DNA of 63,580 bases from Bacteroidota bacterium (GCA_039028335.1 JBCCIF010000004.1:1-63580); one strand, 5' to 3'; counted from the stretch's first letter, positions 5,109 to 43,589 are shown. Numbers and translations: made by a program. Notes: generated by a model from the letters alone, not told the origin.

Positions 5109-7042
<1,934 letters not shown>

Positions 7043-20285: not shown

Positions 20286-20291
20286 GATAAA

Positions 20292-22560: not shown

Positions 22561-23793
22561 TTAGAACCGAGCATTCACAAAATTATTGTTAAGCGACCCA
22601 AAGCGATAAGAAACACCAAAATTGGCGAAGTACCTGAATTGAGTATCTAATTGCCTAATTTGTAAGAGTATGTCTTCATCTGTTATAGAATCCTTCGGAA
22701 TATTTATTCTATCGTTAACCCAAGACACGAAAGCACTCAGCCAAACTCTGAAACCCTTAAATAACTGCCAACTAATACTAGGGTCAAAGTAGACATTATA
22801 CAGCTTAGGATTATGCAAATATTGCTCTACACCAAAATCAATTGAAAAGTCACCCATTTTTTGCGTCTTGAAAAATTCTATATCTATAGAGTGTCTTCCT
22901 ACCCACTCATTCAGTTTATTGAAAACCGTAGAATCTGTATAATTATAGTATTCTGGTCCGATTGAATACCTGAAGGTAAATCGCTTGGTTTGTACTTCAT
23001 CGTAAGGATAAATATTATATTCTACTGCTGGTTTAAAAGCAAAATTCACGTCCATATTGCTAAAGGTTGAAGAACCGCCTTCTGACAAAAAGCCCAAGGA
23101 CCAATTTTGATTTAAGCTTTTCACATAAGTCAAAAATGCATTATAGTCTATTATCTCACTAACAAATGTCTCTCCATCAGTCAATGTAAATGTTGACCTA
23201 TTTAAACCTGAGAAAGCACTGAAACGAAATTTGCTTTCTTCTGTTATTCTTGAAGCCGACAAGCTCGCATTCAAATTTAGACTTCTAAAAGAAGATTCTC
23301 CATTCGTCCACCCATTGGCCCGAATATTATACACCCAATAATTCCAGGGATCAAAAATGACCTCGTCCGACAATGAGTCCACTTCTTCTTCATCCATGGA
23401 ATAAGTAATTTTGTTAATCAAAGGAGTTTGAATAATATATGGAAGCAATCCCTTTTTCAAATATTCAACCATTACATCTCTTCGGATAAAATCAGTATCA
23501 TTTGGACCAAAATTAAAGGAGAGAGTGTCTATACGTTGATCAAAATCTTCACTTCCCTGAAAAACCATTTGAATTTCTCTTCCACCACTTGCGGTTTGCA
23601 CACCTGTTATCAAAACAAACACATCAGCTTCCATACGCTCGAGTGAATGATCTACGAATGTTATGTTCTGTTTGATATAGTCAAAATAACATCTGGTGTT
23701 ACAGTCGATAAAAAGATCTAACTTATCCTGAGACTGGGAAAATAATGAAATACTTCCTAGGATGATTAACATTAAACTTTCGAATCGCTTCAT
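22561..23793 (-). CDS. Hypothetical outer-membrane beta-barrel-like protein
   Basis: Signal peptide (MKRFESLMLIILGSISLFSQ), alternating amphipathic strands in the C-terminal half and a terminal aromatic residue (...VNARF). The family was not recognised. Confidence 0.5.
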   Translation of the reverse strand: MKRFESLMLIILGSISLFSQSQDKLDLFIDCNTRCYFDYIKQNITFVDHSLERMEADVFVLITGVQTASGGREIQMVFQGSEDFDQRIDTLSFNFGPNDTDFIRRDVMVEYLKKGLLPYIIQTPLINKITYSMDEEEVDSLSDEVIFDPWNYWVYNIRANGWTNGESSFRSLNLNASLSASRITEESKFRFSAFSGLNRSTFTLTDGETFVSEIIDYNAFLTYVKSLNQNWSLGFLSEGGSSTFSNMDVNFAFKPAVEYNIYPYDEVQTKRFTFRYSIGPEYYNYTDSTVFNKLNEWVGRHSIDIEFFKTQKMGDFSIDFGVEQYLHNPKLYNVYFDPSISWQLFKGFRVWLSAFVSWVNDRINIPKDSITDEDILLQIRQLDTQFRYFANFGVSYRFGSLNNNFVNARF

Positions 23794-23980: not shown

Positions 23981-24430
23981 TTAAGAACTCAATAATTCTC
24001 TTACGATTCCTGAGATGACTTTGCCATCTGCTTTTCCAGCCATTTTACCAGTGGCCTGCCCCATGACTTTTCCCATATCGGCCATTGAACTTGCTCCTGA
24101 ACTGCTAATTATCTCTTGTACTATTGCTTTAATCTTTTCATTAGACAGCTGCTCTGGCAGAAAGGACTCTAAAACATTTGCTTGGGCCATTTCTTCATCA
24201 TATAGATCTTCTCTACCCTGCTCTTTGTAAATATCCGCTGCCTCTTTGCGTTGTTTATGCAATTTGGTAATGAGCTTAAGTGCTACTTCGTCATTCACTT
24301 CAGAAGAACCGTCTTTTGTGGCCTCCAAAAGAAGAGCGGATTTCACCGCTCTCAATGTTGCCAATTTGACTTGATCTTTTGCACGCATGGCATCCTTGAT
24401 GCCATCATTAATGTTATTAGCTATACTCAT
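23981..24430 (-). CDS. yqeY: GatB/YqeY domain-containing protein
   Basis: Typical YqeY sequence (I.D.IKDAMRAKD...L.TLR..KSAL...). Its start overlaps the ftsZ stop (TAATG). Confidence 0.85.
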   Translation of the reverse strand: MSIANNINDGIKDAMRAKDQVKLATLRAVKSALLLEATKDGSSEVNDEVALKLITKLHKQRKEAADIYKEQGREDLYDEEMAQANVLESFLPEQLSNEKIKAIVQEIISSSGASSMADMGKVMGQATGKMAGKADGKVISGIVRELLSS

Positions 24431-26070
24431 TAGTCCACATTGTCATGTAAAAATGAATTGTTCTCTTTAATTTGGATCTTAGGATTCTCAGGTGTCCCAT
24501 CATTATTGATAGACAATCTACTTATCTCAGATTCTGACGAATGCGCTACTTTCTTCAAAACAGTGTTGTTTCGCTTGTATGCCGGAACATTCTCTAATTC
24601 CGCTAATCCATCTGGATTACGCAGCTTCATTGTATTTTCTCTAATGCGTTTTAGACGATCATCATTTAACTTTTGTACGTCTGCCAGACTTGGGCCTGAT
24701 TCAGCTTCTTGAACCGGTTGCGAGCTCGGTGCAGGAATCTCAAATGCATTAATTGGCATTTCCTGATCTATTACAGGCTCATCATTTAAGGAAAAATACT
24801 GCTTTTCTTCTTCATTAACACTCTCTGGTTCTGCTGTGTCTTTTTCAACCTCTGTAACTTGCCTTAAAATCGGTTCTTCAAAGTCCAAATTAATCTGAGG
24901 GGCTTCTTCATTTTCTTCCTCATCATTTTTCTGTACTAGAAATGGCTCAGGTTCTACTTCCTTTTCAATTTGAATTTGCTCTGAATTATCCACAGGATTT
25001 TCTAATGGACTTTCTATTGGTTTGGTTATGATAACCGGAACATCCTCGTTCAGTTCTCTTTTTACCGTTTCAGGTTCTTTGTTCTCATCAACACCAACAT
25101 CCGGCAAGTTAGAACTAAATCCAGTCGCGATAACAGTTATATTCACCTCGTTCTCCAGATTCGGATCCTGTCCGTAGCCCATGATGACTTCTGCTTGCAT
25201 TCCTGCTTCATTTTGAATGAAATCAGTTATTTCCGATAGCTCATCCATGGTTATGTCATCCTTTCCATGCGCAATGTTCAACAATATATGCCTTGCTCCT
25301 TTAATCTCATTATCGTTCAATAATGGAGACTCAAGGGCTTGTTTCACTGCTTTCATAGCACGCTCTTCCCCTTCAGCTGTGCCGGATCCCATAATTGCCA
25401 CTCCACTGTCTTTCATTATGGTATTGACATCATTCATATCTACATTGATATATCCAATTGTCGAAATAACATCAGCAATTCCCTTTGCTGCAGTAGTTAA
25501 AATACTATCTGACTCAGCAAAAGCTTTTGTCACAGTGAGATTACCACATACTTCTCTTAATTTATCATTCTTAATTACCAAAAGCGTATCTACCGACTTA
25601 CGCATTTCTTCGAGACCAGCTTCAGCTAGACTTCTTCTTCTCGGTCCTTCGAACATAAATGGGATGGTAACAATGCCAACAGTTAATATACCCATTTCCT
25701 TTGCAGCTTGTGCGATAACCGGTGCCGCCCCAGTGCCTGTTCCACCACCCATTCCGGCAGTGATAAATACCATAGTCGTCTTATTCTGAAGAACTTCCTT
25801 AATTTCCTCAATGCTCTCTATCGCTGCATTTCGTCCAACACTTGGTATTGAACCTGCACCTCTACCTTCGGTTAAGGCAGTTCCTATTTGTATCCTATGC
25901 GGAATTTGCATTCTGTCTAAATGCTGAGCATCCGTGTTGCATACGATAAAATCCACTCCTTTAATTCCGAGGCCATACATGTGATTCACTGCATTGCTTC
26001 CTCCCCCTCCTACACCTATTACTTTGATAATAGAAGACTTTTCTTTTGGTAATTCAAATTCTATTGGCAT
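24430..26070 (-). CDS. ftsZ: Cell division protein FtsZ
   Basis: Tubulin signature GGGTGTGAAP and N-terminal VIGVGGGGSNAVNHM. A long acidic linker precedes the Bacteroidota-type C-terminal peptide (NNSFLHDNVD). Confidence 0.97.
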   Translation of the reverse strand: MPIEFELPKEKSSIIKVIGVGGGGSNAVNHMYGLGIKGVDFIVCNTDAQHLDRMQIPHRIQIGTALTEGRGAGSIPSVGRNAAIESIEEIKEVLQNKTTMVFITAGMGGGTGTGAAPVIAQAAKEMGILTVGIVTIPFMFEGPRRRSLAEAGLEEMRKSVDTLLVIKNDKLREVCGNLTVTKAFAESDSILTTAAKGIADVISTIGYINVDMNDVNTIMKDSGVAIMGSGTAEGEERAMKAVKQALESPLLNDNEIKGARHILLNIAHGKDDITMDELSEITDFIQNEAGMQAEVIMGYGQDPNLENEVNITVIATGFSSNLPDVGVDENKEPETVKRELNEDVPVIITKPIESPLENPVDNSEQIQIEKEVEPEPFLVQKNDEEENEEAPQINLDFEEPILRQVTEVEKDTAEPESVNEEEKQYFSLNDEPVIDQEMPINAFEIPAPSSQPVQEAESGPSLADVQKLNDDRLKRIRENTMKLRNPDGLAELENVPAYKRNNTVLKKVAHSSESEISRLSINNDGTPENPKIQIKENNSFLHDNVD

Positions 26071-26094
26071 ATCTCTACTTTTAATATTCTTTTC

Positions 26095-27354
26095 TTAATC
26101 GTGTTTTTCAGACATGAACTCTTCGGCTCCTTGAAGAATTCTTCCCAACAAGCCAGTTCCAGACTTGCTCTTTTTTCTTTTTCTTCTTTCGGGTTCAGTC
26201 AAACGCTCTAAACGCTCGAATCCTTTGATCACTAAACCGACTCCAGTGCTGTACATTGGACTGGTAATCTCTTCTGAATTCACTGAGCCCAAATGCTCAT
26301 TTGGATAACCAATTCTTGCATCCATACCCGTTTTAAAGGAGAACAATTGAGGCAAATGCTTCAACTGAGAACCACCACCTGTAACAACTATTCCACCAAT
26401 TAATTGTCGCTCGAAGCCCGAATTCTTGATTTCGTAATGAACAAAATCGATAATCTCCGACATACGCGCGTGAATTATGGAAGAGAGATTCTTCACTGAA
26501 ATTTCCTTTGGAGGCCTACCGCTTAATCCAGGAATGCATACAATCTCATTTTCTTGCTTATCCATTGGCATCGCTGTCCCAAACTTCTTCTTTAATTGTT
26601 CAGCATGCTTTTTCATTATCGTGCATCCCGATTTGATGTCATTGGTTATGATGTTACCTCCAAAAGGAATAACTGCAGTATGTCGGATTATTCCATCATG
26701 GAAAATTGCAATATCAGTGGTACCACCGCCTATATCTACCAAAACAACTCCTGCTTCCTTCTCTTCTTCACTCAATACTGAAGCTGCTGAAGCCAGCGGT
26801 TCTAGCATTAGATCTGTTGCAACAAGATCGGCTTTGCCTACGCATCGATGAATATTCCTAATTGCATTTACATGTCCTGTAATGATGTGGAAGTCGGCTT
26901 CTATTTTTGTACCGGCATGACCTATAGGCTCTTTGATTCCGGTTTCATCATCAATGATATATTCTTGAGGCAAGACATCAATAATTTCTTCGCCCGGAGG
27001 CAATGCAAGTTTTTCAGCATCTTTTACCAAGCCATCGAGATCAAACTGATCTATCTCACCTAAATTATTATCCCGCATTCGCATGCCTCTATGCTGCAAA
27101 CTTTTTATGTGCTGTCCGGCAACACCGACATTCACACTCTTAACCTCTATACCCGAGATATTTGACGCTTCTTCAATTGCAGCATTGATCGAATCAACAG
27201 TTTGTTGAATATTCGAGACGATACCTCGATTGACACCGATAGATTCAGAGCGCCCCATTCCTAAAATTTCAATTTTTCCTTGCTCGTTTTTTCGTCCAAC
27301 AATACAGGCAATCTTTGTTGTTCCGATATCTAAGCCTACTACAAATTCTGACAT
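26095..27354 (-). CDS. ftsA: Cell division protein FtsA
   Basis: Actin-fold motifs (VGLDIGTTKI, DIGGGTTDIA) and position between ftsQ and ftsZ. Confidence 0.95.
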   Translation of the reverse strand: MSEFVVGLDIGTTKIACIVGRKNEQGKIEILGMGRSESIGVNRGIVSNIQQTVDSINAAIEEASNISGIEVKSVNVGVAGQHIKSLQHRGMRMRDNNLGEIDQFDLDGLVKDAEKLALPPGEEIIDVLPQEYIIDDETGIKEPIGHAGTKIEADFHIITGHVNAIRNIHRCVGKADLVATDLMLEPLASAASVLSEEEKEAGVVLVDIGGGTTDIAIFHDGIIRHTAVIPFGGNIITNDIKSGCTIMKKHAEQLKKKFGTAMPMDKQENEIVCIPGLSGRPPKEISVKNLSSIIHARMSEIIDFVHYEIKNSGFERQLIGGIVVTGGGSQLKHLPQLFSFKTGMDARIGYPNEHLGSVNSEEITSPMYSTGVGLVIKGFERLERLTEPERRKRKKSKSGTGLLGRILQGAEEFMSEKHD

Positions 27355-27358
27355 ATTC

Positions 27359-28117
27359 CTATTTTTTAGTGCAAACGATTTGATCTTTGTACTTCAAATT
27401 TACCGTACTGAACGCATTCCAGTAATTGCCTTTATCGCAATTCGCGTAGAAAGCCCTCAGTTTCTCAAACTTAGTCCTTAGATCACTTGCATTTCCTACT
27501 AATATTTTATGATTTCCAATACGAGGTGTTAATTCTATTTCTTGCTTCGTGTCAATATGGATTTGTACTATCTGATGTTTCCACATTGGATTTTCTTCAA
27601 TAAATCTCAATAAAGACAAAAGGTCATCTTTCAGTTCTATTTTGCTCTCTTCGTTTGATCTAAAATCAAGTGAATTCGCACTCGTAATGGAAACTAACCG
27701 AGCGGCATGGAGGGCTGATAAATCAATTGGGCTCCCTTCTAAATCAATGTAGTACGACTCTCCATTGGAGTTAAAAATTCTCGCTACGGGCTCTTTTTGA
27801 ATAACTGAAATATGGAGTTGACCTGCTATATCAGAAAATACTTTTGCCTCTTTGACTTGAGAAATGGCTTTGATTTTATTTTCAATTTGATCGACAGGAA
27901 TATCCGTTATTTTTTGTCCTTCTATTCGAAATTCATTTTGAGACAAAGTATAGTCTAATGTGGACTCATTGATAAGAGGATATTCTTCTCCCTTTTCTAT
28001 TTCGAAAATTAACGTGTTGCAAATACGCTCATTGAAGCTTAAAGTAGAAAAGCTTAACAAGGTGAAAAAAGATGCGATGAGCACCATCCAAATTGTGATT
28101 CTTAGTACTTTCTTCAT
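27359..28117 (-). CDS. ftsQ: Cell division protein FtsQ/DivIB-like
   Basis: Single N-terminal TM segment, POTRA-like region, and position between murC and ftsA. Confidence 0.8.
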   Translation of the reverse strand: MKKVLRITIWMVLIASFFTLLSFSTLSFNERICNTLIFEIEKGEEYPLINESTLDYTLSQNEFRIEGQKITDIPVDQIENKIKAISQVKEAKVFSDIAGQLHISVIQKEPVARIFNSNGESYYIDLEGSPIDLSALHAARLVSITSANSLDFRSNEESKIELKDDLLSLLRFIEENPMWKHQIVQIHIDTKQEIELTPRIGNHKILVGNASDLRTKFEKLRAFYANCDKGNYWNAFSTVNLKYKDQIVCTKK

Positions 28118-28118
28118 A

Positions 28119-29498
28119 TTAGGATTTAATGCTTAATTCATTTAAAATCCCCTCTTTCAAGGGTTGAACACACCGGTCAATATCTCCAGCTCCTAAGGTC
28201 ATAATTATGTCATATTCAGATTGTACAACCTGCTTAAGTAATTGAGCCTTTGTGCAAAGCGTCTTTTTGTCAAGATTAACTTTCTCTAACAATACTTGGC
28301 TACTGACCCCAGCAATTGGCTCTTCTCTTGCTGGATAAATATCTAGCAAAATCAACTGGTCCAATTCCGACAATTCCTTGGCAAATTGAATCATAAAATC
28401 GCGTGTTCTGGAGAATAAATGAGGTTGAAAAACTCCAAGCACAGTCTTTCCTGGATACAAGAGTTTTATTGCTGAAATAATCGACTTTAATTCACCAGGG
28501 TGATGAGCGTAGTCATCAATGTAAATGCAATCGGGTTCATTTATTATGTACTCGAATCTTCGCTTAACTCCATGATATGACTCCAATGCAGCACGTATTT
28601 CGCTTTTCTCAACTCCTAGTTTGTTGGCTGTTATTGAAGCGGCCAGAGCATTTAATGCATTGTATTCACCAGGAAGATGAAAACATATCCCCTCTAAACG
28701 ATCGTTATCGAGTATCATATCAAACTGAAATCGGCCCTGGTCAATTTTCAAATTCTCAACACGGTTCGCACTTGCACCATAATTAACTATTGCAGCATTC
28801 AGTTCTTCATTAAACTTTACGGAATCATGCTTAACAATGCCTCCTTCATTTGCTGTTCTATTAGCAAAAGACCAAAAGGTATTTTGAAAATCAGCTTGAT
28901 CACGATAAATATCAAGATGATCTGCTTCTATTGAGGTAATAATGCTAATAAAAGGCTCTAGTTTAAGGAATGAGCGGTCGTATTCATCAGCTTCAACGAC
29001 AACGAGATCAGAAGATTTATTTAGTAAAAAATTACTCTTCAAATTTGTGGATATTCCTCCTAGAAAAGCATTACAACCTATGCTCTCATTAAGAATATGT
29101 GCAAGGATGCTTGATGTCGTTGTTTTACCGTGCGTTCCAGCCACGGCCAAGACTTTCATTTCTTTTAAAACCAGAGCTAAGGCATCAGAACGTTTAAGAA
29201 CTTTATATCCCTCATCTCTAAAGAATTTCAAAATTCTCTGATCCTTGGGTATGGCTGGGGTATAAATCACAAGCACATTTGACTTTTCCACGTTCAAAAA
29301 ATCAGTTTCTATACTTTCTTCTTGATCATTGTAAGTAATGGATATACCTCGATTCTCTAAATCAGTAGTTATAGATGAAGATGTTCTATCATAACCGTAA
29401 ATCGGAATGTCGAAAGCATTCATATAGTGTGCAAGCGCACTCATACCTATGCCTCCAATCCCAATTAAATAAGCGCTATGGATATTTAATTTTTTCAC
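28119..29498 (-). CDS. murC: UDP-N-acetylmuramate--L-alanine ligase
   Basis: Mur-ligase P-loop (AGTHGKTTTSS), N-terminal GIGGIGMSALA motif and dcw position. Confidence 0.95.
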   Translation of the reverse strand: MKKLNIHSAYLIGIGGIGMSALAHYMNAFDIPIYGYDRTSSSITTDLENRGISITYNDQEESIETDFLNVEKSNVLVIYTPAIPKDQRILKFFRDEGYKVLKRSDALALVLKEMKVLAVAGTHGKTTTSSILAHILNESIGCNAFLGGISTNLKSNFLLNKSSDLVVVEADEYDRSFLKLEPFISIITSIEADHLDIYRDQADFQNTFWSFANRTANEGGIVKHDSVKFNEELNAAIVNYGASANRVENLKIDQGRFQFDMILDNDRLEGICFHLPGEYNALNALAASITANKLGVEKSEIRAALESYHGVKRRFEYIINEPDCIYIDDYAHHPGELKSIISAIKLLYPGKTVLGVFQPHLFSRTRDFMIQFAKELSELDQLILLDIYPAREEPIAGVSSQVLLEKVNLDKKTLCTKAQLLKQVVQSEYDIIMTLGAGDIDRCVQPLKEGILNELSIKS

Positions 29499-30601
29499 CC
29501 AATCAATTCGAATATTTCTTTTGCGATTCTGCCGGCAGCATTTTCTTTGGCTAGTTCTCCTGCCTTTTGAGACATGTCTCTCAATTTGTCCTCATCTTGA
29601 ATTAATTCTATGGCGAGTGGAATAAGCTCTTCTTGTGCATTTTCATCTCTGACTAAAAGAGCCGCACCTTTACTGAGCAGTGCCTGTGCATTTTTAGTTT
29701 GGTGATCTTCAGTCACATTTGGGGAAGGAACAAGAATGGAGGGCATTTTAGTTAAACTCAATTCCGAAATTGACATAGCTCCCGCACGCGAGATCGTCAA
29801 ATCTGCAAGGGCATATGCCAAATCCATTTCCCGAATGAACTCAAGGGTCCTAATTCCGTCATAATCAAATGAATTGGATTGTTCTTTGGCATCAGCAAAG
29901 TAATATTTACCTGTTTGCCAAAGCACTTGAATACCGCTTTCTTTAATCTTTTCTAGATGAGACAAAAGGCTATTGTTCAATGTTCGCGCTCCAAGACTCC
30001 CTCCAATCACCAGAAGTGTCTTTCTTTCAGCAGATAATTTGAAATGGCTTAGGGCTCTTTCCTTCTTTCCTTCCAGATCAACAACATTTTGACGCACCGG
30101 ATTACCCGTAATAACTAGTTTCTCTTTTGGAAAGTAATTGTCCATTCCATCAAAAGCAACGCAGATTTTCTTTGCTTTTCGTGCAAGAATGCGGTTGGTT
30201 ATTCCTGGATATGAATTTTGTTCTTGAATAAGCGTTGGAAGGCCTTTATTAGCAGCAGCGCGTAGAAGAGGACCGCTTGCATATCCACCGACACCAACGG
30301 CTACTTGAGGAGAAAAATTTCTGATGATTCCACGAGCACGTTTTAAACTTTGAATAATTTTGAATGGGACCAGAAGATTCTTAAGCGTTATCTTACGTTG
30401 AATACCAACTATATTCAATCCTTCGATAGGATATCCTGCCTCTGGGACTTTTTTCATTTCCATCTTACCCTTAGCACCAACAAAGAGAATTTCAGTGCTT
30501 GAATTCTGTTTCTTCAAGGCATCTGCAATGGCTATAGCAGGAAATATATGTCCACCTGTTCCGCCTCCGCTAATAATTACTCTAGGCGACTGCGAACTCA
30601 T
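29495..30601 (-). CDS. murG: Undecaprenyldiphospho-muramoylpentapeptide beta-N-acetylglucosaminyltransferase
   Basis: The GGGTGGHIFPAIAIA motif. The start was moved to the ATG at 30601 (MSSQSPRVIISGGG). The track ORF extends to 30661. Confidence 0.95.
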   Translation of the reverse strand: MSSQSPRVIISGGGTGGHIFPAIAIADALKKQNSSTEILFVGAKGKMEMKKVPEAGYPIEGLNIVGIQRKITLKNLLVPFKIIQSLKRARGIIRNFSPQVAVGVGGYASGPLLRAAANKGLPTLIQEQNSYPGITNRILARKAKKICVAFDGMDNYFPKEKLVITGNPVRQNVVDLEGKKERALSHFKLSAERKTLLVIGGSLGARTLNNSLLSHLEKIKESGIQVLWQTGKYYFADAKEQSNSFDYDGIRTLEFIREMDLAYALADLTISRAGAMSISELSLTKMPSILVPSPNVTEDHQTKNAQALLSKGAALLVRDENAQEELIPLAIELIQDEDKLRDMSQKAGELAKENAAGRIAKEIFELIG

Positions 30602-31748
30602 GACTGGATTGTTGTGCTGTTTGCTCTTGGCTTTCTCTAGAAACGCATTGAATGAGACCAAGTGCGAGGCAAGTAAACCAAATAGATGTTCCTCCCATAC
30701 TTACCAATGGCAAAGGTTGGCCGGTCACTGGAATTAGATTAACTGCAACTGCCATATTCACGAATGCTTGAAAAGCGATCATAAATCCCAACCCGATTAC
30801 TACGTAGGCACCAAATTTTGAATTCGCTCTTCGTGAAATGCGCATGCATCTTATAAACAAAACTAAATACAAAAAAAGGAGCCCAACTCCGCCTAAAACT
30901 GAACCGTACTCTTCAATAATAAAAGCATAGATCATATCGGAATATAAATGAGGCAGGTAATTTGGGGAAGCGCCCTTGCCTGGCAAGTCCGGTAATATTC
31001 CTCCTGATACAATGGCCAATTCGGCTTTTTGAACTTGATAATTTTCAGCACTTTCTCCACTCCAAAAATCACTTATTCTTTCAGACCAGGTATTCAATCT
31101 TGGAAGGGCTTCCGGAGCTACTTTAGCAATTCCAACCATAGCTCCAAAAGAGAGAACTGCCGCTAAGATGACAATGGCCATGTGGCCGACACGAACTCCG
31201 GCTATAAACATCAAAACGAAACACGTACCGAAGAGAAGCGCAGCAGTAGAAAAATTTGCGGGTAGAATAAGCAGACAAATTATTCCAATCGGAATCAAAA
31301 CAGGAATGACCCCTAATTTAAAATTCCGTATTAGATCTTGATTCTTTGTAACTAAGCGGGCTACATAAAGCACCAATGCAATTTTGGCCAAGTCCGAAGT
31401 CTGGAAACTTTGATTAACGATCGGAATAGTAATCCATCTTTTCGCATCATTGATATCGTTGCCAAAAAGCAATGTAAAAGCCAATAAAATGGCCGCAAGA
31501 AAAATTAGGAGTATTGAAATTCTGTAGACATACTTGAATTTAATTCGATGCATGAAATACATAATGCATAACCCGATACCAAGCATAGTGCCATGTCTAA
31601 ACAGATAGTAAAAGGTATTTCCATCTCGATACTTTTCAGCCAATCCTGAAATTGAGCTATACACAGCTATTAGAGAAACAAAACAAAGTAAAAACGTTAC
31701 TATCCAAAGAATTCGGTCTCCCTTTAAATATTTAAATAGTCCGGCCAA
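30582..31748 (-). CDS. ftsW: SEDS-family peptidoglycan glycosyltransferase FtsW
   Basis: Ten-TM SEDS pattern (...PLPLVSMGGTS...) and dcw position. Confidence 0.92.
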   Translation of the reverse strand: MAGLFKYLKGDRILWIVTFLLCFVSLIAVYSSISGLAEKYRDGNTFYYLFRHGTMLGIGLCIMYFMHRIKFKYVYRISILLIFLAAILLAFTLLFGNDINDAKRWITIPIVNQSFQTSDLAKIALVLYVARLVTKNQDLIRNFKLGVIPVLIPIGIICLLILPANFSTAALLFGTCFVLMFIAGVRVGHMAIVILAAVLSFGAMVGIAKVAPEALPRLNTWSERISDFWSGESAENYQVQKAELAIVSGGILPDLPGKGASPNYLPHLYSDMIYAFIIEEYGSVLGGVGLLFLYLVLFIRCMRISRRANSKFGAYVVIGLGFMIAFQAFVNMAVAVNLIPVTGQPLPLVSMGGTSIWFTCLALGLIQCVSRESQEQTAQQSSHEFAVA

Positions 31749-31749
31749 T

Positions 31750-32268
31750 CTATTTTATCTTAGCTATTTCATTTTTGAAGGCGTTACCTAATTCCACAAA
31801 GTTGTTATACTCTGGTGGTGGAGGACAAGAAGGAGAAAAGAGAATTACATCTCCTTTCGATGCCAAAGTTTTCGCTTCGTCAATGGCTTCTTTCATTCCT
31901 TGAGTTTGAATAATCACATCTACTAAAGGCATAAGTTCCCTCTTGATGTCTTCAGCATTTTCGCCCATGACAACAATTGATTTCACCTTATACTCTACCA
32001 TTTTATTCAGAAGCATGAAATCTCTATCATGCGCTGTGGAGTTGACTATCCAAACAACAGGACGCTTCAGACATCGAATAGAGTCTTTTGTGGTAATTAA
32101 ATTCGTAGCTTTTGAATCATTGATATATAGAACTCCTGCAATTTCTTCAACCTCTTCTAAACGATGTTCCGTGCTTTTTAATTCATTAATGAGCTTTTCT
32201 CTAGCATCGAGAAGTTTGTCAGCTAGGCTCTGCTTTCCTCGGTGAATAGTGAATACTTTATTTTCCAT
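31750..32268 (-). CDS. Stand-alone MurD C-terminal-domain (Mur ligase domain 3) paralogue, copy A
   Basis: 172 aa. It aligns to residues ~325-461 of the adjacent MurD ([27 protein letters not shown]...NFVELG). It has no P-loop and no N-terminal or central Mur-ligase domains. It lies 1 nt from ftsW and 12 nt from copy B. Confidence 0.7.
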   Translation of the reverse strand: MENKVFTIHRGKQSLADKLLDAREKLINELKSTEHRLEEVEEIAGVLYINDSKATNLITTKDSIRCLKRPVVWIVNSTAHDRDFMLLNKMVEYKVKSIVVMGENAEDIKRELMPLVDVIIQTQGMKEAIDEAKTLASKGDVILFSPSCPPPPEYNNFVELGNAFKNEIAKIK

Positions 32269-32280
32269 TTTAGTGTTTAT

Positions 32281-32793
32281 TTAGTGCAATGATTGTATGA
32301 ATGCATCACCCCTGCTTTCAAAATCCCCATAAGTGTTGTTGTTTGGTATTGCAGGCGAATACAGGACACATGAACCTTTAAATGCCAGTTCCTTTGAAAG
32401 ATCGACTGCTTCTTGAATGGTATTGGCCTCTACTACTACATCAACTAGCTGAAAAAGTTCTTCAACTGTCTGCGCTCTGTTCTGGCCTACTACAATAACG
32501 GATTCCAATTCATTTAAAGTATCCAAATCCAAATTCGCAAAATTCCTTTGATAAGGGCCCGCTTCAACTATCCAGAAAACGGGCTTTGAAATGGAATCCA
32601 AAGAAAATGCAGTTGATTCCAAGTCTTGCGATTTTGCATCATTTATAAATTCAATCCCATCAAACTCACCAACCAATTGCAAACGATGAGTAGTATCTAG
32701 GAGCCTGTTCATGTCCCTTTTTCTCTTAGCAAGCATTCTATCTGCTAATTTTTGGAGACCTTGTTCTTTTAGAATTTCGATTTCTGCATTCAT
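32281..32793 (-). CDS. Stand-alone MurD C-terminal-domain (Mur ligase domain 3) paralogue, copy B
   Basis: 170 aa. It aligns to the same MurD region (THRLQLV, INDAKSQD, VFWIV, VLYSPAIP...DFESRGDAF). It is more divergent than copy A and lies 24 nt downstream of murD. Confidence 0.7.
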   Translation of the reverse strand: MNAEIEILKEQGLQKLADRMLAKRKRDMNRLLDTTHRLQLVGEFDGIEFINDAKSQDLESTAFSLDSISKPVFWIVEAGPYQRNFANLDLDTLNELESVIVVGQNRAQTVEELFQLVDVVVEANTIQEAVDLSKELAFKGSCVLYSPAIPNNNTYGDFESRGDAFIQSLH

Positions 32794-32817
32794 TTTCTTT
32801 TGGGTATTGGTTTTGAT

Positions 32818-34149
32818 TTAAAGTGATCTAACTGCCGCCTTAAATTGATGTCCTCGATCTTCATAGTTCTCGAAAAGATCAAAACTTGCACAGGCTGGAG
32901 AAAGCAAAACTGTATCACCAGCATTGCCTACTAATTTGGCTAATCTCACGGCTTCCTCAGCTGAATCCGATTCATGAATATTAACGACCTTATCTTTAAA
33001 AGCATCAACAATCTTGGCATTGTCTTTTCCTAGACAAACTATGGCTTTGACCTTGTTCTCAACCAATTCCATAAGCTCGCTGTAGTCGTTCCCTTTGTCC
33101 ACTCCTCCTACAATCCAAACAATATTTCCTTCAACAGAGTCCAATGCATACCATACTGAATTGATATTTGTGGCTTTGGAATCATTTATAAAATCTATTC
33201 CATCTACACGGGCAACATGTTCTAGTCTGTGCTCAATACCCTTGAATGAAACCAAGCTTTCTCTTACGGTTTCATTTTTAATTTCAAGCACTCTCGAAGC
33301 CACTGCGGCCGCCATTGAGTTGTAAACGTTGTGTTTACCTTTTAAGGCTAATTCGTAAATTGACATAATTAATGAGTTATTGTTTAATTTTATGTTTAGT
33401 AATTCTCCATTCAAAAAGGCCCCTTCGTCCACTTCTTTCTTTATAGAAATGGGTATCATTTTGGCCTTGATTTCTTTTTGTTTTATGAGATCGTTTATGA
33501 TCGGGTCATCTGCATTATAGATAAAGAAGTCCTCTTCATCTTGATTCATGCATATTCTCATTTTTGAAGTTGCATAAGCATGAATATCATAGTCATAGCG
33601 ATCGAGATGATCTGGTGTAATATTTAACAGAACAGCTACTCGTGGCTTAAATTGCTTTATTCCATCTAATTGAAAACTACTGACCTCAATGACATAATTG
33701 GACCTGTCTTTTTCGGCTACTTGTTTCGCTAAACTAAAGCCAATATTTCCAGCTAAACCTGTATCTCTTCCCGATTTGCTAAAAACATCATAGATCAAAT
33801 TTGTCGTAGTTGTTTTACCATTACTTCCAGTTATTGCAACCATCTCTGCTTTACTGAATCGATACCCCCATTCAATCTCCGAGATAATTTCTTTCCCTTC
33901 GTCTTTGAGGCCTTTGATCAATTGCAGATGATCTGGAATGCCTGGACTTTTTATGATTACATCCGCATCTAAAAGCTTAGCTTCAGTATGTCTTCCCTCT
34001 TCATATCCAATCCCAAAATTTGAAAGAACGTTTTTGTATTTTGCTCTTATCTGACCTTTGTCAGAAAGCCATACATCAAATAATTTCTGTTTCGCAAGGA
34101 TGGCCGCTCCCACCCCACTTTCTCCTCCTCCAAGGACCGCGACTTTCAT
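32818..34149 (-). CDS. murD: UDP-N-acetylmuramoylalanine--D-glutamate ligase
   Basis: Full three-domain MurD ([36 protein letters not shown]). The start was moved to the ATG at 34149, which overlaps the mraY stop (ATGA). Confidence 0.95.
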
Positions 34150-35378
34150 AACACTTTCAGGGTTACAATTGAAATAATTGCGAGAAAGACACCTATTATC
34201 CAAAAGCGAGCGACAATTTTGGATTCATGCATTCCTAAAACCTGATAGTGGTGATGAAGCGGAGCCATTTTGAAAATGCGCCTTCCCTCTCCAAATTTTT
34301 TCTTGGTATACTTGAAATAGCCTACCTGCAGCATTACCGATAGATTCTCAATTAAAAAGATGCCGCATATGATAGGTATGAGTAGTTCTTTACGAATGAT
34401 AATTGCAAAAACAGCTATGATTCCCCCTAAGGCCAAGCTGCCTGTGTCACCCATAAATACTTTTGCTGGAAAAGCATTGTGCCATAAAAATCCTATGCAT
34501 GCACCAACGAATGCCGAAATGAATACCACGGCTTCTCCAGAGTTAGGTATATACATGACATTCAAGTAATCCGCAAAAATGGTATTGCCTGAGACATAGG
34601 CAAAAATGGCTAAGGCTATACCGACAATTGCCGAGACCCCTGTTGCAAGACCATCTAAACCATCTGTCATATTGGCCCCGTTACTCACGAAGGTTACGAT
34701 GAATATTACCACAGGAATAAAGATTATCCAAGCATACTTCTGCCGATCTTCTTCACCCAAAAACCAAAGAACATCAGCATAGTCAAATTCATTATTCCTT
34801 AAAATCGGGATTGTTGTTTTTGTTGATTTTTCTGCAATCCAAATTGCGCTATCTCCATCTGGATCATCGATACTTTGGGCGTTGACGACCGTATGTTCTT
34901 GCTTAATAACAAAGTCATCATGAAAAAACAGGGCCGCTCCAACGATCAAGCCAACTCCTACTTGACCAACGACTTTAAACTTACCTGCCAAGCCCTTTTT
35001 ATTCTTTCGGAATACTTTTATATAATCATCCAAAAAACCTACTGCTCCTAGAAATACAGTCGTAAAGAGCAAGATGATAATGTAGATATTACTGAGATCT
35101 GCGAATAGTAAAGTTGGAATCAGAATAGCGCCCAGAATTATCAATCCTCCCATGGTAGGAGTGCCTGCTTTTTCATTTTGCCCCTTTAAACCTAAATCAC
35201 GAATAGACTCACCTATCTGCTTCTTTCGAAGAAGGCCAATTAGTTTGTTGCCCAATATCATGCTGATTACCAGAGAAATCAACACAGCAGATGCCGCTCG
35301 AAAAGAAATAAACTGAAATATTCCTGCTCCGGGAGTCTGATAGGTATTCTCTAGATATTCGAATAGATGATACAGCAT
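34146..35378 (-). CDS. mraY: Phospho-N-acetylmuramoyl-pentapeptide transferase
   Basis: Typical MraY motifs ([34 protein letters not shown]). Confidence 0.97.
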
Positions 35379-36841
35379 TACTTTTCTAGCATTTTAAGCG
35401 TTTCTTGAACGATTTCGAAATCATCAAAAGGATGACGAACGCCATTTATTTCTTGGTATTTCTCATGCCCCTTCCCAGCAACAAGAACTACATCTCCCGG
35501 GTAAGCCATATCGCATGCCGCTTTGATAGCATCTCTTCTATCTGATATGGTAAGCGTCTTTTTAAAATGAATTCCCTCGACTCCTGCTGTCATATCTTTT
35601 AAAATCGCCTCTGGTTTTTCATTCCTAGGATTGTCGGATGTAAAAATCACTTTGTCGGAAAATTCGCAGGCTATCTTCGCCATAATGGGCCGCTTCTTTC
35701 GATCCCTGTTCCCACCGCAGCCAATAACGGTTATGATCTTCTCATTACCTGTGCTGATATCTAATATTGTTTTGAGGACATTTTTCAGCGCATCGGGCGT
35801 GTGGGCATAATCAACAATGGCCGAAACATTCTTCTCTGTTCTTAAGTGCTGAAAGCGACCCTCAACCGGGTTCAAACGTGAAATCTGCGTCAATACTTCG
35901 AGCTTATCTTTACCCAGTGAAATGGCAGTTGCATATACGGCAAGTATGTTGTAAGCATTGAAGCTGCCGATCATTTTTGTGTATAGGTCGTTTCCATCAA
36001 GAAGGACATGAATCCCACTGAATTGATTCTCAATTATTTTAGCCTTGAAGTCGGCAAAGGATTTTACGGCATAGGTTCTTGAAGTAGCTTTTGAATTTTG
36101 AACCATTATCTCTGAATGAGGATCATCATGGTTGACTATGGCAATTGCTTCTTTAGCCAGCTGATCAAAAAAGATCTTCTTCGCCTTTATATATTCATCA
36201 AACGTTTTATGATAATCCAGATGATCATGCGTGATATTGGTAAAGAGCCCAATTTTAAAATCCACTGCCGTTACTCTGTGTTGAACCAATGCATGGGAAC
36301 TAACTTCCATAAAGCAATACTCTATTCCCTCATCCACCATTCTCGCCAAGAGTCTATTCAAAAGGACCACATTTGGCGTTGTATGAGTCGCAGGAATCTC
36401 ATCTTTTCCTATGCGATTGACAACAGTACTAATCAGGCCACAGTTATGACCCATGGCTGTAAACAATTGCCATAGCAGGGTCACACATGTCGTTTTCCCA
36501 TTTGTCCCTGTTACACCAATCAAATTCAATTTCTCTGAAGGATGATCATAGAAATTTCCTGCAATTTCCGCCAAAGCCTTTGCAGAGTCGCTTACTTTGA
36601 TGTATGTAATTCCGCCATGCACTACCTCTGGCAGCGTTTCGCAAACAATGGCAATAGCACCTTTCTCAAGCGCCATTTCGATATACTCGTGCCCATCTAC
36701 TTGCTCACCGGGTATTGCAACAAATAATGAATATCCTTTAACATCCCGGCTATCAAAGTACAAAGAGTCAATAGCTACATTTGTTGGTCCAATGACATCT
36801 TCGATGCCAGCTTTATACAGTATGTCTTTTAGTATTTTCAT
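35378..36841 (-). CDS. murE: UDP-N-acetylmuramoyl-L-alanyl-D-glutamate--2,6-diaminopimelate ligase
   Basis: P-loop [10 protein letters not shown] and the DNPR motif (TSDNPRNE) typical of meso-DAP-adding MurE. Confidence 0.95.
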
Positions 36842-38943
36842 TTAAAAGTGAGCGCTATTTGATCATTAGGCTTGAAGGAAGATCCCTCTTTAATAGACTG
36901 GTGAGCGACAAGTCCATTTCCTTCAATTGCGACTACCAAGCCCATATTTTCTAATAATGGAATTGCGTCCATCATTGGCATTCCTTTTACATTGGGAATT
37001 GTATTTTTCTTAACAGTTATTTCGTCTACAGCAATTGCATTTTCTTTCGCTCTTGTCCTCACCCATTCACCATCGGTTCTCTTCGTTTCTAAAGCTATAT
37101 TCAGATTTTTGGCCACTTGAATGAGATCATCTCCATAACCACTTTTACTTATTGGAGCTTTTTGCTCATCCGAAATTTCCGCTAACTCTATCATGAAATT
37201 CTTGGCGTAAAATTTCTCTGCAATCTCAAGAAATACCGGTCCAGCCACTCGATTCCCGTAATAAAGACCCTTGGTAGGATTATTGACCAAAACAATACAC
37301 GAGTACTTTGGATCATCTGATGGAAAATAGCCCACAAATGACGCTTGGTATCTTGCCTTGTTATCGGCTGTTCTATATCTGCCATCCATGGCAACTTGAG
37401 CTGTCCCTGTTTTTCCAGAAATCTCGAAATGAGGCGATCGCAAATTTTTTGCTGTTCCATTTTCGACTACTCCTTTCAATAACTCCTTGGCATCATTTAA
37501 TGTACCTTCAGAAATAAAATCTTTGTTAATAATAATGGGCTCGGATTGATGAACTAACTCACCATTTCTTTTGATTCTCTTAACTAATTGAGGCTGCACC
37601 ATCACCCCGTCATTAGCAATTGCATTATAAAATGTCAAGGTCTGTAAAGGAGTCATTTTTAACTCATAACCGATCGACATCCATGGCAATGTAACTCCGG
37701 ACCAATGCCCATTTTGATGATCCGGTGTTTTTAGGAAAGGAACCGGCTCTCCTGGTATACTAATCCCGGTTCGTTGATCAATCCCAAATCGTCTCAAGTA
37801 CTTAATGAAGGTCTCTCTATCATTGTCAAATACATCATCTACAACTCTGGAAATACCTACGTTAGATGATACCTCAAAAGCCTTTTGAATATTGACTTTA
37901 CCATAACCCTTGTCATTGGAGTCCTTCATGATTCGATCATGAAATCTGTGTCGTCCCCTTTTCGTATCGACCATAGTTTCTCGACTCACACTTCCTGTTT
38001 CAATGGCTGCTAAAATTGAAGGAAGCTTAAACGTTGACCCCGGTTCAGTAGCAGTTCCAATAGCATGGTTATATCGTTCCACATACTCCCCTGATTCACT
38101 TTTGTCTAAATTTACAATCCCCTTAATAAACCCTGTTTCAACTTCCATAAAGATTGCGCAACCAAAATCGGCTTCATGCTCGACCATTTTTTTTCGAAGA
38201 GCTTCAGAGAGAATATCTTGAACATTGATATCAATGCTTGTGTAAACATCAGCCCCATCTACTGTTTCAACTTGATCATCGTCATTGAGGGGCATCCAAT
38301 CACCACTGGCAATTTTACGCTCTAACCTTTGACCGTTTCTTCCTTTCAATAGGCTATCGAAAGCCAATTCTAAACCATAGATCCCTTTGTCTTTTCCAAA
38401 ACTGTATTTCCCTATTGTCCTTCGTGCTTTTTCCCTGAATGGATTCGCTCTTTTCACCTTCTTTTCAAAACGCACACCGCCTTTGAACCTACCCAATTCG
38501 GCAAGCGGAAACTCTCGAACTTTCTGCAACTCTGTGTAGTTTATTCCCGACTTCAATAATTGATAGCGCTTACCCTGTCTTCTATATCTTTGAAAATCAG
38601 ACAACCAATCGACATAGGAACCACCAAACTCTTCAGACATTGCCTTTGCAAACGCCCCGATATTCTCGTTAAATCTGGCATCACTTAGACCGTCCGCTTT
38701 AAAGTCCATTCGAACATCGTAAATCGGCAAGGTGGTTGCTAAAAGGCTTTCGTCATCGGCATATATATTTCCACGATCAGCTATCACCTCTTTCCATCTA
38801 GTGTATCTTTCAGATTCTTCTGTAATTTGCGGATCAGCCGAAATCTGAATACTGAAAAGGCGGTAGATAATAGCTACGGAAAGAACAAATACGAAGACCC
38901 CAACCAGAGTCGTTCTCACTATGGTTCCTTGTTCAATCTTCAT
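36838..38943 (-). CDS. ftsI: Penicillin-binding protein 3 (FtsI) with C-terminal PASTA domain
   Basis: Transpeptidase motifs STFK, SSN and KTGT. The last ~60 aa look like a PASTA domain (IPNVKGMPMMDAIPLLENMGLVV...G.V..QS...G). The start was moved to the ATG at 38943. Confidence 0.92.
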   Translation of the reverse strand: MKIEQGTIVRTTLVGVFVFVLSVAIIYRLFSIQISADPQITEESERYTRWKEVIADRGNIYADDESLLATTLPIYDVRMDFKADGLSDARFNENIGAFAKAMSEEFGGSYVDWLSDFQRYRRQGKRYQLLKSGINYTELQKVREFPLAELGRFKGGVRFEKKVKRANPFREKARRTIGKYSFGKDKGIYGLELAFDSLLKGRNGQRLERKIASGDWMPLNDDDQVETVDGADVYTSIDINVQDILSEALRKKMVEHEADFGCAIFMEVETGFIKGIVNLDKSESGEYVERYNHAIGTATEPGSTFKLPSILAAIETGSVSRETMVDTKRGRHRFHDRIMKDSNDKGYGKVNIQKAFEVSSNVGISRVVDDVFDNDRETFIKYLRRFGIDQRTGISIPGEPVPFLKTPDHQNGHWSGVTLPWMSIGYELKMTPLQTLTFYNAIANDGVMVQPQLVKRIKRNGELVHQSEPIIINKDFISEGTLNDAKELLKGVVENGTAKNLRSPHFEISGKTGTAQVAMDGRYRTADNKARYQASFVGYFPSDDPKYSCIVLVNNPTKGLYYGNRVAGPVFLEIAEKFYAKNFMIELAEISDEQKAPISKSGYGDDLIQVAKNLNIALETKRTDGEWVRTRAKENAIAVDEITVKKNTIPNVKGMPMMDAIPLLENMGLVVAIEGNGLVAHQSIKEGSSFKPNDQIALTFK

Positions 38944-39298
38944 TTCGAATCTTTTGAATTTCAACAAGTGGCTCTGTCGACTCATCCAGACCCAGATTAG
39001 AAATCTGACGTGCGACTGAAGATTGCTGCCTTAAACTATCTAATTGCGATTGCCAAGTGAGATGTTCCGACTTAACGTCCTTTAGCTCTGCCTCACGGAG
39101 ATTCAGCTCCTTTACAGATCGCTCTGTAAAGTAGCCGTAAGAAATGTAGCAAACCATAATTAGTGTTAGAAAAGCTGCAAAAGGCAAGAATTGCACTACC
39201 TGGTCTTTACCAAGAAAACTCCCATTGAGTATATCAATGACCTTCTTGACAAAAGCAGGCGTTTTAATTGATCTTCTTTCCTTTCTGAGTTTGTTCAT
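38933..39298 (-). CDS. ftsL: FtsL-like cell division protein
   Basis: Small bitopic protein with one TM segment followed by a coiled coil, located between rsmH and ftsI. Confidence 0.65.
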   Translation of the reverse strand: MNKLRKERRSIKTPAFVKKVIDILNGSFLGKDQVVQFLPFAAFLTLIMVCYISYGYFTERSVKELNLREAELKDVKSEHLTWQSQLDSLRQQSSVARQISNLGLDESTEPLVEIQKIRNED

Positions 39299-40205
39299 TT
39301 ATTCTTTCTCCTATTCTCAATCGAGCACTTCTGGCCCGTGGGTTTCGTTCTATTTCCTCTACAGTTGCTTTAATGGCTTTAGATGAGATTGCCCTAAATG
39401 GCTTTATATCGTTTCCGTAAAAATCTTTTCCTACTCTACCTTCGAAATTTCCTGATCTAAAAAAATTCTTAACCATTCTATCCTCTAAAGAATGGTAAGA
39501 GATAATTACCAAGCGACCTCCCACTCTGAGCAACTCCACCGATTGAAGAAGCAATTCTTCTAAAGCCCTCATCTCTTCATTCACCTCTATTCTAAGGGCC
39601 TGAAAAACCTTTGAGAGGTATTGTTTCTCTTTTTTAAACGTTGCCATTGACAGAGAAAGATTCTTCAGCTGCAGGGTATCTTTGAATGACTCCTCTTGAC
39701 GAAAGTCAATTACGGCTTTCGCCAACTTTCCAGGATTGGGAACTTCACCATACCTTCTGAAAACTGACGCTAAGTCTTCAAAAGAATAGGAATTCAAAAT
39801 ATCAGCTGCAGTCGGGCCAACCTGCTGATTCATCCGCATATCAAGAGGACCTTCAAAGCGAAATGAAAATCCGCGTTCCGCCTCATCAAATTGATAACTA
39901 CTCACACCTAGATCCCCTAAAATACCGTCAACAACCCTCAAACCATTTAGTCTGAGATTCTTCTTTAAAAATTTGAAATTTGCCTTTACCAGCGTCAATC
40001 GATCATCATCTATCTTATTTGACTGCGCGTCAGCATCCTGATCAAATGCGATCAAGCGACCGCTTTCTAAGCCCTTCAATATTTCCCTACTATGACCACC
40101 CCCACCATAGGTAACATCCACATAGTCACCATCTTTATTGATTTCTAATCCATTAATACAATCATGTAAAAGAACGGGGGTATGATAGCGATCACTCACC
40201 ATCAT
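39264..40205 (-). CDS. rsmH: 16S rRNA (cytosine1402-N4)-methyltransferase
   Basis: YHTPVLL near the N-terminus, plus DVTYGGGGHS, DLGVSS and SYHSLEDR. The start was taken at the ATGATG (40205/40202) overlapping the mraZ stop. The track ORF extends to 40223. Confidence 0.93.
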   Translation of the reverse strand: MMVSDRYHTPVLLHDCINGLEINKDGDYVDVTYGGGGHSREILKGLESGRLIAFDQDADAQSNKIDDDRLTLVKANFKFLKKNLRLNGLRVVDGILGDLGVSSYQFDEAERGFSFRFEGPLDMRMNQQVGPTAADILNSYSFEDLASVFRRYGEVPNPGKLAKAVIDFRQEESFKDTLQLKNLSLSMATFKKEKQYLSKVFQALRIEVNEEMRALEELLLQSVELLRVGGRLVIISYHSLEDRMVKNFFRSGNFEGRVGKDFYGNDIKPFRAISSKAIKATVEEIERNPRARSARLRIGERINEQTQKGKKIN

Positions 40206-40656
40206 CAAAATTGCCGTTACCAAAAATCTCTTCCGCTAAAGCTTCCGTATTTACATCAGCCTTAAGAGCCTTTTCATAAGCTTTCGGATTCCAAATTTCA
40301 ATTTGATCTCCATTGGCAATGAGCTTTAAATCTTTTTTAACTCCAGCATACTTGAGCAATGACGCATTTATCAGAATCCTGCCTTGACCATCCAATTCAA
40401 CCTTTACTGCGTTGGCCGTAAACTGCCGAATGAAATCTCTATTCTTCTTGATAAAAGTGTTGAGCTTACTCAATTGAGCATTGTTCTTTTTCCAAACTGA
40501 CCATGGATACAAGACCAAAGACCTTTCATAGAGATCCCTATTCACTACAAATCCTTCATGTATAATTTCCTTGACTTGAGCGGACAAGCCCTTTGGGATA
40601 AGCAGCCTGCCTTTGGCATCCACTTTACAATCATATGTCCCCAAAATATCTAGCAA
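40192..40656 (-). CDS. mraZ: Transcriptional regulator MraZ
   Basis: Two SpoVT/AbrB-like repeats, each with the DxxGR motif (VDAKGRLLIP and LDGQGRILI). It is the first gene of the dcw cluster. The start codon is TTG. Confidence 0.92.
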   Translation of the reverse strand: MLDILGTYDCKVDAKGRLLIPKGLSAQVKEIIHEGFVVNRDLYERSLVLYPWSVWKKNNAQLSKLNTFIKKNRDFIRQFTANAVKVELDGQGRILINASLLKYAGVKKDLKLIANGDQIEIWNPKAYEKALKADVNTEALAEEIFGNGNFDDGE

Positions 40657-43274: not shown

Positions 43275-43589
43275 TTAAATATTCAATTGACCTTTGAGAT
43301 CTTCGCAAAACATTCTTACTCCATCGGCAATCCTCTTGTCATCTGTTGCCTTTTCAAAAGAATCAGTAAGCGTAAGAATGGTTTGATGAAAAAATTGCTT
43401 CATTTCTTCCTTGGTCATTTCTTTGTTCCACAGATCAATTCTTAAGGTGTTCTGATCTTTGGAGTCCCAGATTGATAGCATGATTGCTCGCGCTTCTCCT
43501 TCCCCGTCTGCGCCAGCCTTCCAATTAATGGATTCAGGCACTTGGTTTTCATCCATCTCAATATCAAATTCTATTCTTGACTTATTCAT
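43275..43589 (-). CDS. gldC: Gliding motility protein GldC
   Basis: 104 aa with strong resemblance to characterised GldC (ARAIMLSIWDSKDQNTLRIDLW.K.M...EM..FFHQT). It lies directly downstream of gldB, as in Flavobacterium. Confidence 0.87.
   Translation of the reverse strand: MNKSRIEFDIEMDENQVPESINWKAGADGEGEARAIMLSIWDSKDQNTLRIDLWNKEMTKEEMKQFFHQTILTLTDSFEKATDDKRIADGVRMFCEDLKGQLNI

Follow-up and report, generated by a model that had tools for sequence, protein, structure and literature searches.

The cluster of genes for division and the cell wall (dcw) is among the most conserved and most studied bacterial gene clusters, and its content is usually treated as fixed. One subunit of the lipid II amidotransferase MurT/GatD, the Mur-ligase-like protein MurT, also has the scaffold of the Mur ligases; MurT retains the central ATPase domain and catalytic activity, and its C-terminal domain is DUF1727. 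A different kind of relationship is represented by HisZ, a regulatory pseudoenzyme paralogue that works with HisG and is encoded near its parent pathway. For the Mur ligases themselves, natural fusions and complexes (MurE-MurF and others) have been described in which dcw gene order is linked to the association of Mur proteins, and these ligases bind one another with dissociation constants in the high-nanomolar range (PMC10214165). Here we analyze a stretch of 63,580 nucleotides (nt) from a Bacteroidota bacterium (GCA_039028335.1, JBCCIF010000004.1:1-63580), hereafter the window, and specifically two small genes, copies A and B, that lie in its dcw operon between murD and ftsW and encode stand-alone versions of domain 3, the C-terminal domain of MurD. 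The family to which these genes belong is undescribed in the searchable literature and is a feature of a Flavobacteriales branch, not of one genome; the function of this family is readily testable.

Identity of copies A and B and their place in the operon

Copies A and B each consist of MurD domain 3 preceded by a linker helix, and both are non-catalytic. In BLASTP comparisons, copy A is 35% identical to the neighbouring MurD over 143 amino acids (aa; E 5e-26) and copy B is 32% identical to it over 130 aa (E 3e-22), and the two copies share 37% identity over 155 aa (E 1e-38). The sole Pfam match in both is Mur_ligase_C (PF02875), at 39.7 bits (1e-9) in copy A, over the gathering score of 28.4, and at 24.5 bits (5e-5), under this score, in copy B; the domain identity of copy B is backed by TIGR01087 (4e-19), by the BLASTP match to MurD and by Foldseek (E 6e-12). 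The TIGR01087 model is covered only at positions 295-438 in copy A (2e-31) and 304-438 in copy B, and the whole-protein cut-off of 211.95 bits is missed by both (109.5 bits for A and 69 for B); the neighbouring MurD scores 396.4 bits. Pfam searches of A and B gave no match to Mur_ligase_M, the central ATPase domain with the P-loop, at E<=1, and no match to MurD_N or MurD-like_N, the domain that binds UDP-N-acetylmuramic acid (UDP-MurNAc). Because the P-loop, the central domain and the UDP-binding domain are all absent, A and B cannot be ligases. This domain composition is the one expected in a preliminary description of the locus, with the reservation that the Mur_ligase_C match of copy B stays under the gathering score.

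AlphaFold2 (AF2) models of the two proteins, built from 95-sequence alignments, have predicted local distance difference test (pLDDT) values of 89.7 for A and 88.4 for B and contain a long N-terminal helix (residues 8-31 in A and 2-32 in B) followed by an alternating beta/alpha domain. The best match in the PDB is MurD in both cases, namely 7u35 for the A model (E 4e-13, root-mean-square deviation (rmsd) 1.7 A) and 3lk7 for the B model (E 6e-12, rmsd 1.8 A). The best matches all correspond to MurD domain 3, with rmsd of 1.7-2.1 A over 136-144 columns. MurD accounts for the 33 highest-ranking PDB matches of each model, nearly all with rmsd of 1.7-2.5 A over ~140 columns, and MurE, MurF, MurC and Mpl rank far behind.

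The N-terminal region had been described initially as a charged helical extension. The helix is indeed present but is no novel element: its counterparts in MurD, with which it aligns, are the interdomain linker and the helix that ends the central domain. In A, B and the related P0020-type proteins, the linker is 4 residues shorter than in MurD, a difference established from a smaller alignment and from residue counts between conserved anchors, not from the 242-sequence alignment. A further feature of the A-type proteins is a highly conserved motif at the N-terminus, FTIHKSKKSLVDKL, which AF2 does not place with confidence; a conserved but unplaced segment of this kind would be typical of partner binding.

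The operon and the genes of the murD-ftsW slot are as follows.

24430..40656, minus strand: dcw operon mraZ-rsmH-ftsL-ftsI-murE-mraY-murD-B-A-ftsW-murG-murC-ftsQ-ftsA-ftsZ (open reading frame (ORF) list, phmmer mapping, Pfam)
32818..34149, minus strand: murD, 443 aa, full length (Pfam MurD_N, Mur_ligase_M and Mur_ligase_C; TIGR01087 above the cut-off)
32794..32817, minus strand: spacer of 24 nt from murD to copy B, rich in A ahead of the ATG (sequence read)
32281..32793, minus strand: copy B, 170 aa, linker helix (residues 2-32) and MurD domain-3 fold (BLASTP, TIGR01087, AF2)
32269..32280, minus strand: spacer of 12 nt between copy B and copy A (sequence read)
31750..32268, minus strand: copy A, 172 aa, N-terminal FTIH(R/K)xK motif, linker helix (residues 8-31) and MurD domain-3 fold (Pfam, TIGR01087, AF2)
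30582..31748, minus strand: ftsW, 388 aa, TTG start, 1 nt (31749) past the stop codon of copy A (Pfam FTSW_RODA_SPOVE, 3e-65)

The parent gene of copies A and B is murD. There is no terminator-like site in the 24-, 12- and 1-nt gaps of murD-B-A-ftsW. The coordinates and lengths of the ORFs and the sizes of these gaps had been given exactly in the preliminary description, as judged from the ORF list and from reading the junctions, and every motif string quoted there is found in the translations. Apart from B and A, the dcw operon of the window is typical for Bacteroidota.

Several other features of the neighbourhood were recorded. The murF gene lies outside this dcw cluster. Genes for gliding motility and type IX secretion (gldM, gldN and gldB) are located at 18612-21146 and 43589-44644, on either side of the dcw operon, which fits an origin from Flavobacteriia. 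Downstream of ftsZ and yqeY, a 410-aa ORF (22561-23793, minus strand) has no Pfam match at E<=1e-5. The mechanically delimited murG ORF (29495-30661, minus strand) starts with TTG, encodes 388 aa and shares 80 nt with ftsW; given that murG orthologues are 368 aa long, the true start is probably at 30601, which reduces the overlap with ftsW to 20 nt.

A protein family encoded between murD and ftsW

When 1.84 billion cluster representatives were searched with a profile of the stand-alone proteins, the top matches were proteins of 163-186 aa, which rank above full-length MurDs. From the top 150 representatives at 50% identity, 56 short matches (142-197 aa) were retrieved, 46 of which were classed as stand-alone proteins without Lys348 (residues are numbered as in E. 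coli MurD and were mapped from phmmer alignment offsets and motif register). With a broader profile, the best 120 clusters at 90% identity all contain proteins of 153-190 aa. Copies A and B have the defining features of this family, that is, a length of ~153-190 aa, a linker helix followed by domain 3, and loss of the GGxDKG loop. Recurrent matches of 182 aa are a mixed set that comprises contig-edge MurD fragments (P0033), a genuine longer class of stand-alone proteins (P0042, L006/7) and a truncated murD in a Tenacibaculum metagenome-assembled genome (MAG).

The named members of the family come only from uncultured Flavobacteriales ('Cryomorphaceae' and Salibacteraceae). In the databases they are called 'hypothetical protein' or 'glutamate ligase domain-containing protein', and JGI names the ~170-aa proteins (P0008, P0133, P0277 and others) 'UDP-N-acetylmuramoylalanine--D-glutamate ligase'. 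The latter is an over-annotation, through which murD counts would be inflated in metagenome surveys. Full-text literature searches yielded no paper describing a stand-alone MurD C-domain, in agreement with the preliminary description, which was aware of no described role for such domains.

Stand-alone genes occupy the slot between murD and ftsW in all 15 of the related gene clusters examined, so that the insertion noticed in the window extends well beyond this genome. The number of copies differs among the clusters.

Two copies in the slot: the window, L001, L002, L012, L013, L010/11, L015, L017
One copy in the slot: L003/4, L006/7, L016, L092, L094, L095/96, L097

Two copies are also found in L008/9, where the contig ends upstream of them and murD is not visible. 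In Bacteroidota and Chlorobiota outside this clade (L019-L021 and L026, the latter from Algoriphagus), murD directly overlaps ftsW, which is the usual order with which the window had been contrasted in the preliminary description.

This positional constancy bears on a possible adaptor function, whereby A, with or without B, would tether cytoplasmic precursor synthesis to FtsW or MurG via the N-terminal motif and helix. A family gene is located directly upstream of ftsW in each of the 15 clusters, its stop codon often lies 1-5 nt from the ftsW start or the two genes overlap by 4 nt, and the A-type motif is conserved and not confidently placed by AF2, all of which would suit an adaptor. However, the overlap of murD with ftsW is ancestral (L019-L021, L026), so that both position and coupling follow from the origin of the gene; gaps of 75-175 nt precede ftsW in some lineages (L013, L008, L006), and no fusion with FtsW or MurG was found among the odd-length matches. 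We therefore view a divisome adaptor as quite improbable.

A few of the surveyed loci are unusual in other respects. Locus L013 (JBLIMR010000001.1, 406 kb) is titled 'Gammaproteobacteria bacterium', yet carries a dcw cluster of the Flavobacteriales type with two copies that are 51-65% identical to those of the window; this bin is probably mislabelled or contaminated. In L005, the Tenacibaculum sp. MAG mentioned above (GCA_018456245.1, JAGYHQ010000001.1), only a 182-aa ORF (6001-6549) is present between mraY and ftsW. This ORF corresponds to the last ~180 residues of an ordinary MurD, and none of the catalytic motifs is impaired; the 5' part of murD is missing, as is murC between murG and ftsQ. 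The arrangement could result from genome reduction, deletion or misassembly and illustrates how a free domain 3 could arise. Finally, murG is split into two ORFs in L002 (8152-9302) and mraY is split in L094 (4376-5634; 139 + 274 aa), probably by sequencing frameshifts.

Selection and descent

Because YN00 estimates were saturated in most pairs, the ratio of nonsynonymous to synonymous substitution rates (dN/dS) was taken from L002 and L012, the sole pair that is unsaturated at synonymous sites. In this pair, dN/dS is 0.008 for copy A and 0.029 for copy B, compared to 0.033 for MurD, 0.053 for FtsW and 0.017 for MraY. All remaining pairs combine a saturated dS with a dN of only 0.06-0.19. Between the window and L001, protein identity is 92% for A, 83% for B, 80% for MurD and 89% for FtsW. 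Orthologues of copy B are 70-83% identical, and B is the more divergent and faster-evolving of the two paralogues. In the close relatives L001 (an ENA contig), L002 (a JGI contig) and L012 (a GTDB representative), both genes are intact, in the same order and with 70-88% protein identity, and the same arrangement is seen in independent assemblies from four sources (ENA, JGI, Logan and NCBI). These sequence comparisons show that copies A and B are under strong purifying selection, consistent with the view, put forward in the preliminary description, that these are retained genes rather than decaying fragments.

The opposite possibility, namely that the two genes are non-functional remnants of a murD duplication or an artefact of assembly, might be suggested by the Pfam score of copy B, by the decayed upstream copy in L016 (see below) and by the many short 'MurD C-terminal' database entries that are contig-edge fragments (e.g. 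P0033). Nevertheless, this explanation can hardly be correct, given the omega values of 0.008-0.03, the intact ORFs in every close relative, orthologue identity at least as high as that of MurD itself, and the recurrence of the arrangement in assemblies from four sources without any long DNA repeat. Pseudogenes and misassembly are ruled out by dN/dS, by the intact orthologues in the four data sources and by the absence of long repeats. A duplication of the murD 3' end during assembly, in particular, is ruled out because the three copies share only short motif-level DNA repeats (such as the INDSK codons). Recombination of domain 3, or cassette switching, was also considered and rejected, as there is no repeat beyond a 30-nt motif-level match. 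Overall, we are highly confident in the identity of A and B and in their status as functional genes.

The domain 3 of MurD itself is the best-conserved part of this enzyme, with 89% identity between the window and L001, vs 75% for domains 1-2. Thus, it is not relaxed in the genomes that carry the free copies, which implies that the latter supplement rather than replace it. This observation is also pertinent to the possibility that the free domain is an exchangeable specificity module that replaces that of MurD in trans, so that the core would add a different amino acid at position 2 of the stem peptide. Domain 3 of Mur ligases binds the incoming amino acid, and the pocket residues have changed in a lineage-specific manner, as such a module would require, but the intact, highly conserved and tethered domain 3 of MurD would dominate over it. 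Furthermore, no Mur ligase without domain 3 is encoded nearby. A specificity module is accordingly very unlikely.

The relationships within the family were addressed with a neighbour-joining tree of the stand-alone copies and the MurD C-domains of the same genomes. The proteins at the A and B positions and those of the single-copy P0020 type group together, to the exclusion of the MurD C-domains (100% bootstrap). This clade and the common shorter linker support the scenario of a single truncation followed by duplication that was part of the preliminary description. The A-type proteins form an orthologous group (97% bootstrap) whose internal branching matches the MurD tree, which indicates vertical descent. 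The B-position copies fall into three mutually unresolved clades, that of the window (100%), a second one (95%) and a third one that includes the B copy of L017 (87%). Monophyly of the B-position copies receives only 2% bootstrap in the tree in which the stand-alone clade has 100%, and one duplication or several may lie behind them. The 182-aa class (L006/7) has a full-length linker and branches nearer to MurD, with 69% support for joining the rest of the family; it may represent an earlier stage or an independent event.

Two single-copy loci indicate that some lineages can dispense with the upstream copy, in contrast to the A copy. In L016, a 286-nt stretch between murD and the single gene (2161-2445) is a decayed second copy at the B position, with ~65 N-terminal codons in one frame, the C-terminal tail in another and an internal deletion, and the A copy is intact; in L003, there is no room for a second copy.

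Both the truncation and the duplication are older than the lineage of the window. Under the most economical scenario, the slot would have received its first stand-alone gene when murD was partially duplicated in tandem, at its 3' end, in an ancestor of a Flavobacteriales subclade. The A and B positions would go back to a second tandem duplication, within one sublineage, and would have been inherited vertically since then. With an origin by partial duplication of the murD 3' end, the last copy would stay as close to ftsW as murD itself is in other Bacteroidota.

Conserved residues, possible functions and known systems

Among the residues of MurD domain 3, we take Arg302, Asp317 and Lys319 to be involved in nucleotide and intermediate binding. 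The carboxylates of D-glutamate (D-Glu) are contacted in MurD by Thr321, Lys348, Ser415 and Phe422 (PMC3527612). Residue retention was counted over 179 stand-alone members of the family. The first group of positions is largely retained (R302 97%, D317 100%, K319 91%), together with H301 (96%), and T321 (86%), S415 (74%), F/Y422 (98%) and R425 (91%) are kept in most members. In contrast to these, position 348 is never Lys in the family and is occupied by V, H, L, Y, F or M instead. Residue 322 shows a family-specific switch, being Asn in 96% of MurD and Asp in 70% of the stand-alone proteins. These counts indicate that selection still acts, across the family, on the surface that in MurD closes over the active site, but the clamp for the D-Glu alpha-carboxylate is gone.

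Copy A of the window has H35/R36 and D51/K53/T55 at the conserved positions, H80 at the position of 348, P150/P151 at those of 415/416 and F157 at that of 422; copy B has Q at 321, Y at 348, N/N at 415/416 and F at 422. Hence, the complete D-Glu site (Thr321, Lys348, Ser415/Leu416, Phe422) is present in neither of them, and the copies of the window are more derived at this site than the family as a whole.

These patterns have to be considered with respect to a small-molecule binder or sensor, in which the free domain 3 would bind a D-Glu derivative without the alpha-carboxylate charge, a UDP-MurNAc-peptide or a nucleotide, and would buffer precursor levels or report them to the division machinery. 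That T321, S415, F422, R302, D317 and K319 are kept at 74-100% family-wide, with only Lys348 being systematically replaced, mostly by hydrophobic or aromatic residues, resembles a pocket that has been re-tuned rather than abandoned, and the switch from N322 to D also speaks for a sensor. Conversely, the pocket of MurD is completed by domains 1-2, so that domain 3 alone provides only half of it, and it is least preserved precisely in the window, where S415/L416 are replaced by Pro-Pro in A and by Asn-Asn in B, and T321 by Gln in B. A sensor of this type is unlikely. The replacement of Lys348 and Ser415/Leu416 makes D-Glu binding, for these two copies, the least likely of the roles that were proposed in the preliminary description.

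We tentatively favour a general role of A and B as accessory, pseudoenzyme-like subunits of the machinery for peptidoglycan-precursor synthesis and division. According to this model, A and B would be produced from the dcw operon along with MurD and FtsW, and the retained cleft-closing surface (the HR...E and NDSK(A)T motifs) would be their working face. Most likely, A and B would dock on domains 1-2, the catalytic core, either of MurD or of a different Mur ligase, or else on the bound nucleotide substrate, with a modulating or scaffolding effect. Copy A would be the core member of the system that is always retained, and copy B a faster-evolving one that is lost in some lineages; after the duplication, the two may form a heteromeric pair. 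As the D-Glu pocket is dismantled here (Lys348 to His or Tyr; Ser415-Leu416 to Pro-Pro or Asn-Asn), a protein- or nucleotide-directed role is likelier than D-Glu binding. An accessory subunit is plausible, too, because Mur ligases associate with each other (PMC10214165). In a more specific version of the model, A and B are trans-acting regulators of precursor synthesis that settle on the open core of MurD or of a different Mur ligase, or link it to FtsW or MurG, and in this way gate or channel the flux at the D-Glu step in concert with septal synthesis; this version is possible but rather doubtful.

Several considerations weigh against an accessory subunit. The tethered domain 3 of MurD should out-compete a free domain for the catalytic core, and the HR..E and NDSK motifs could have been kept for structural rather than functional reasons. 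The close junction with ftsW is probably a legacy of the ancestral overlap of murD with this gene, so that it says little about a physical link to FtsW. No informative fusion (Rosetta-stone) proteins were detected, the odd-length matches being MurD fragments joined to unrelated sequence, and no Mur partner that consists only of the N-domain and the central domain, without domain 3, is encoded in the window. Finally, the deep branches of the family tree are unresolved.

Whatever the exact mode of action, the dcw cluster has gained one or two components at a fixed position, under strong purifying selection, in a branch of Flavobacteriales that is sizeable, marine and freshwater, and for the most part uncultured, and the free Mur ligase domain is a natural pseudoenzyme. 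If A and B bind MurD, another Mur ligase, MurG or FtsW, they would offer a handle on whether the cytoplasmic Mur enzymes form a regulated complex and on how these enzymes are coupled to septal synthesis. If they are regulators, this branch of Flavobacteriales would possess an extra dcw-encoded control component derived from a recycled enzyme domain.

The closest known counterpart is domain 3 of MurD itself, with which the family shares the fold (rmsd 1.7-2.5 A), clear homology and the EHRLE, NDSK(A)T, SP and RG motifs, and next to whose gene the stand-alone genes are located in the dcw cluster. Unlike this domain, A and B are separate polypeptides of ~170 aa without a UDP-binding or ATPase domain; the GGxDKG loop with Lys348 is replaced family-wide, as are Ser415/Leu416 in the window copies, the linker is shorter by 4 residues, and the A-type proteins have a new conserved N-terminal motif. 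In MurT/GatD, the Mur ligase scaffold is likewise reused in cell-wall synthesis, in a complex with a partner protein, but A and B are limited to domain 3, and no similarity to MurT is significant above the general level of Mur ligases. In the natural Mur ligase fusions, complete enzymes are joined, whereas here the opposite event has occurred, with a single domain being freed. HisZ and HisG, which have no homology with A and B, provide an analogy only and merely illustrate a possible mode of working, in which selection maintains a paralogue of an enzyme, truncated or inactive, in the role of a non-catalytic subunit.

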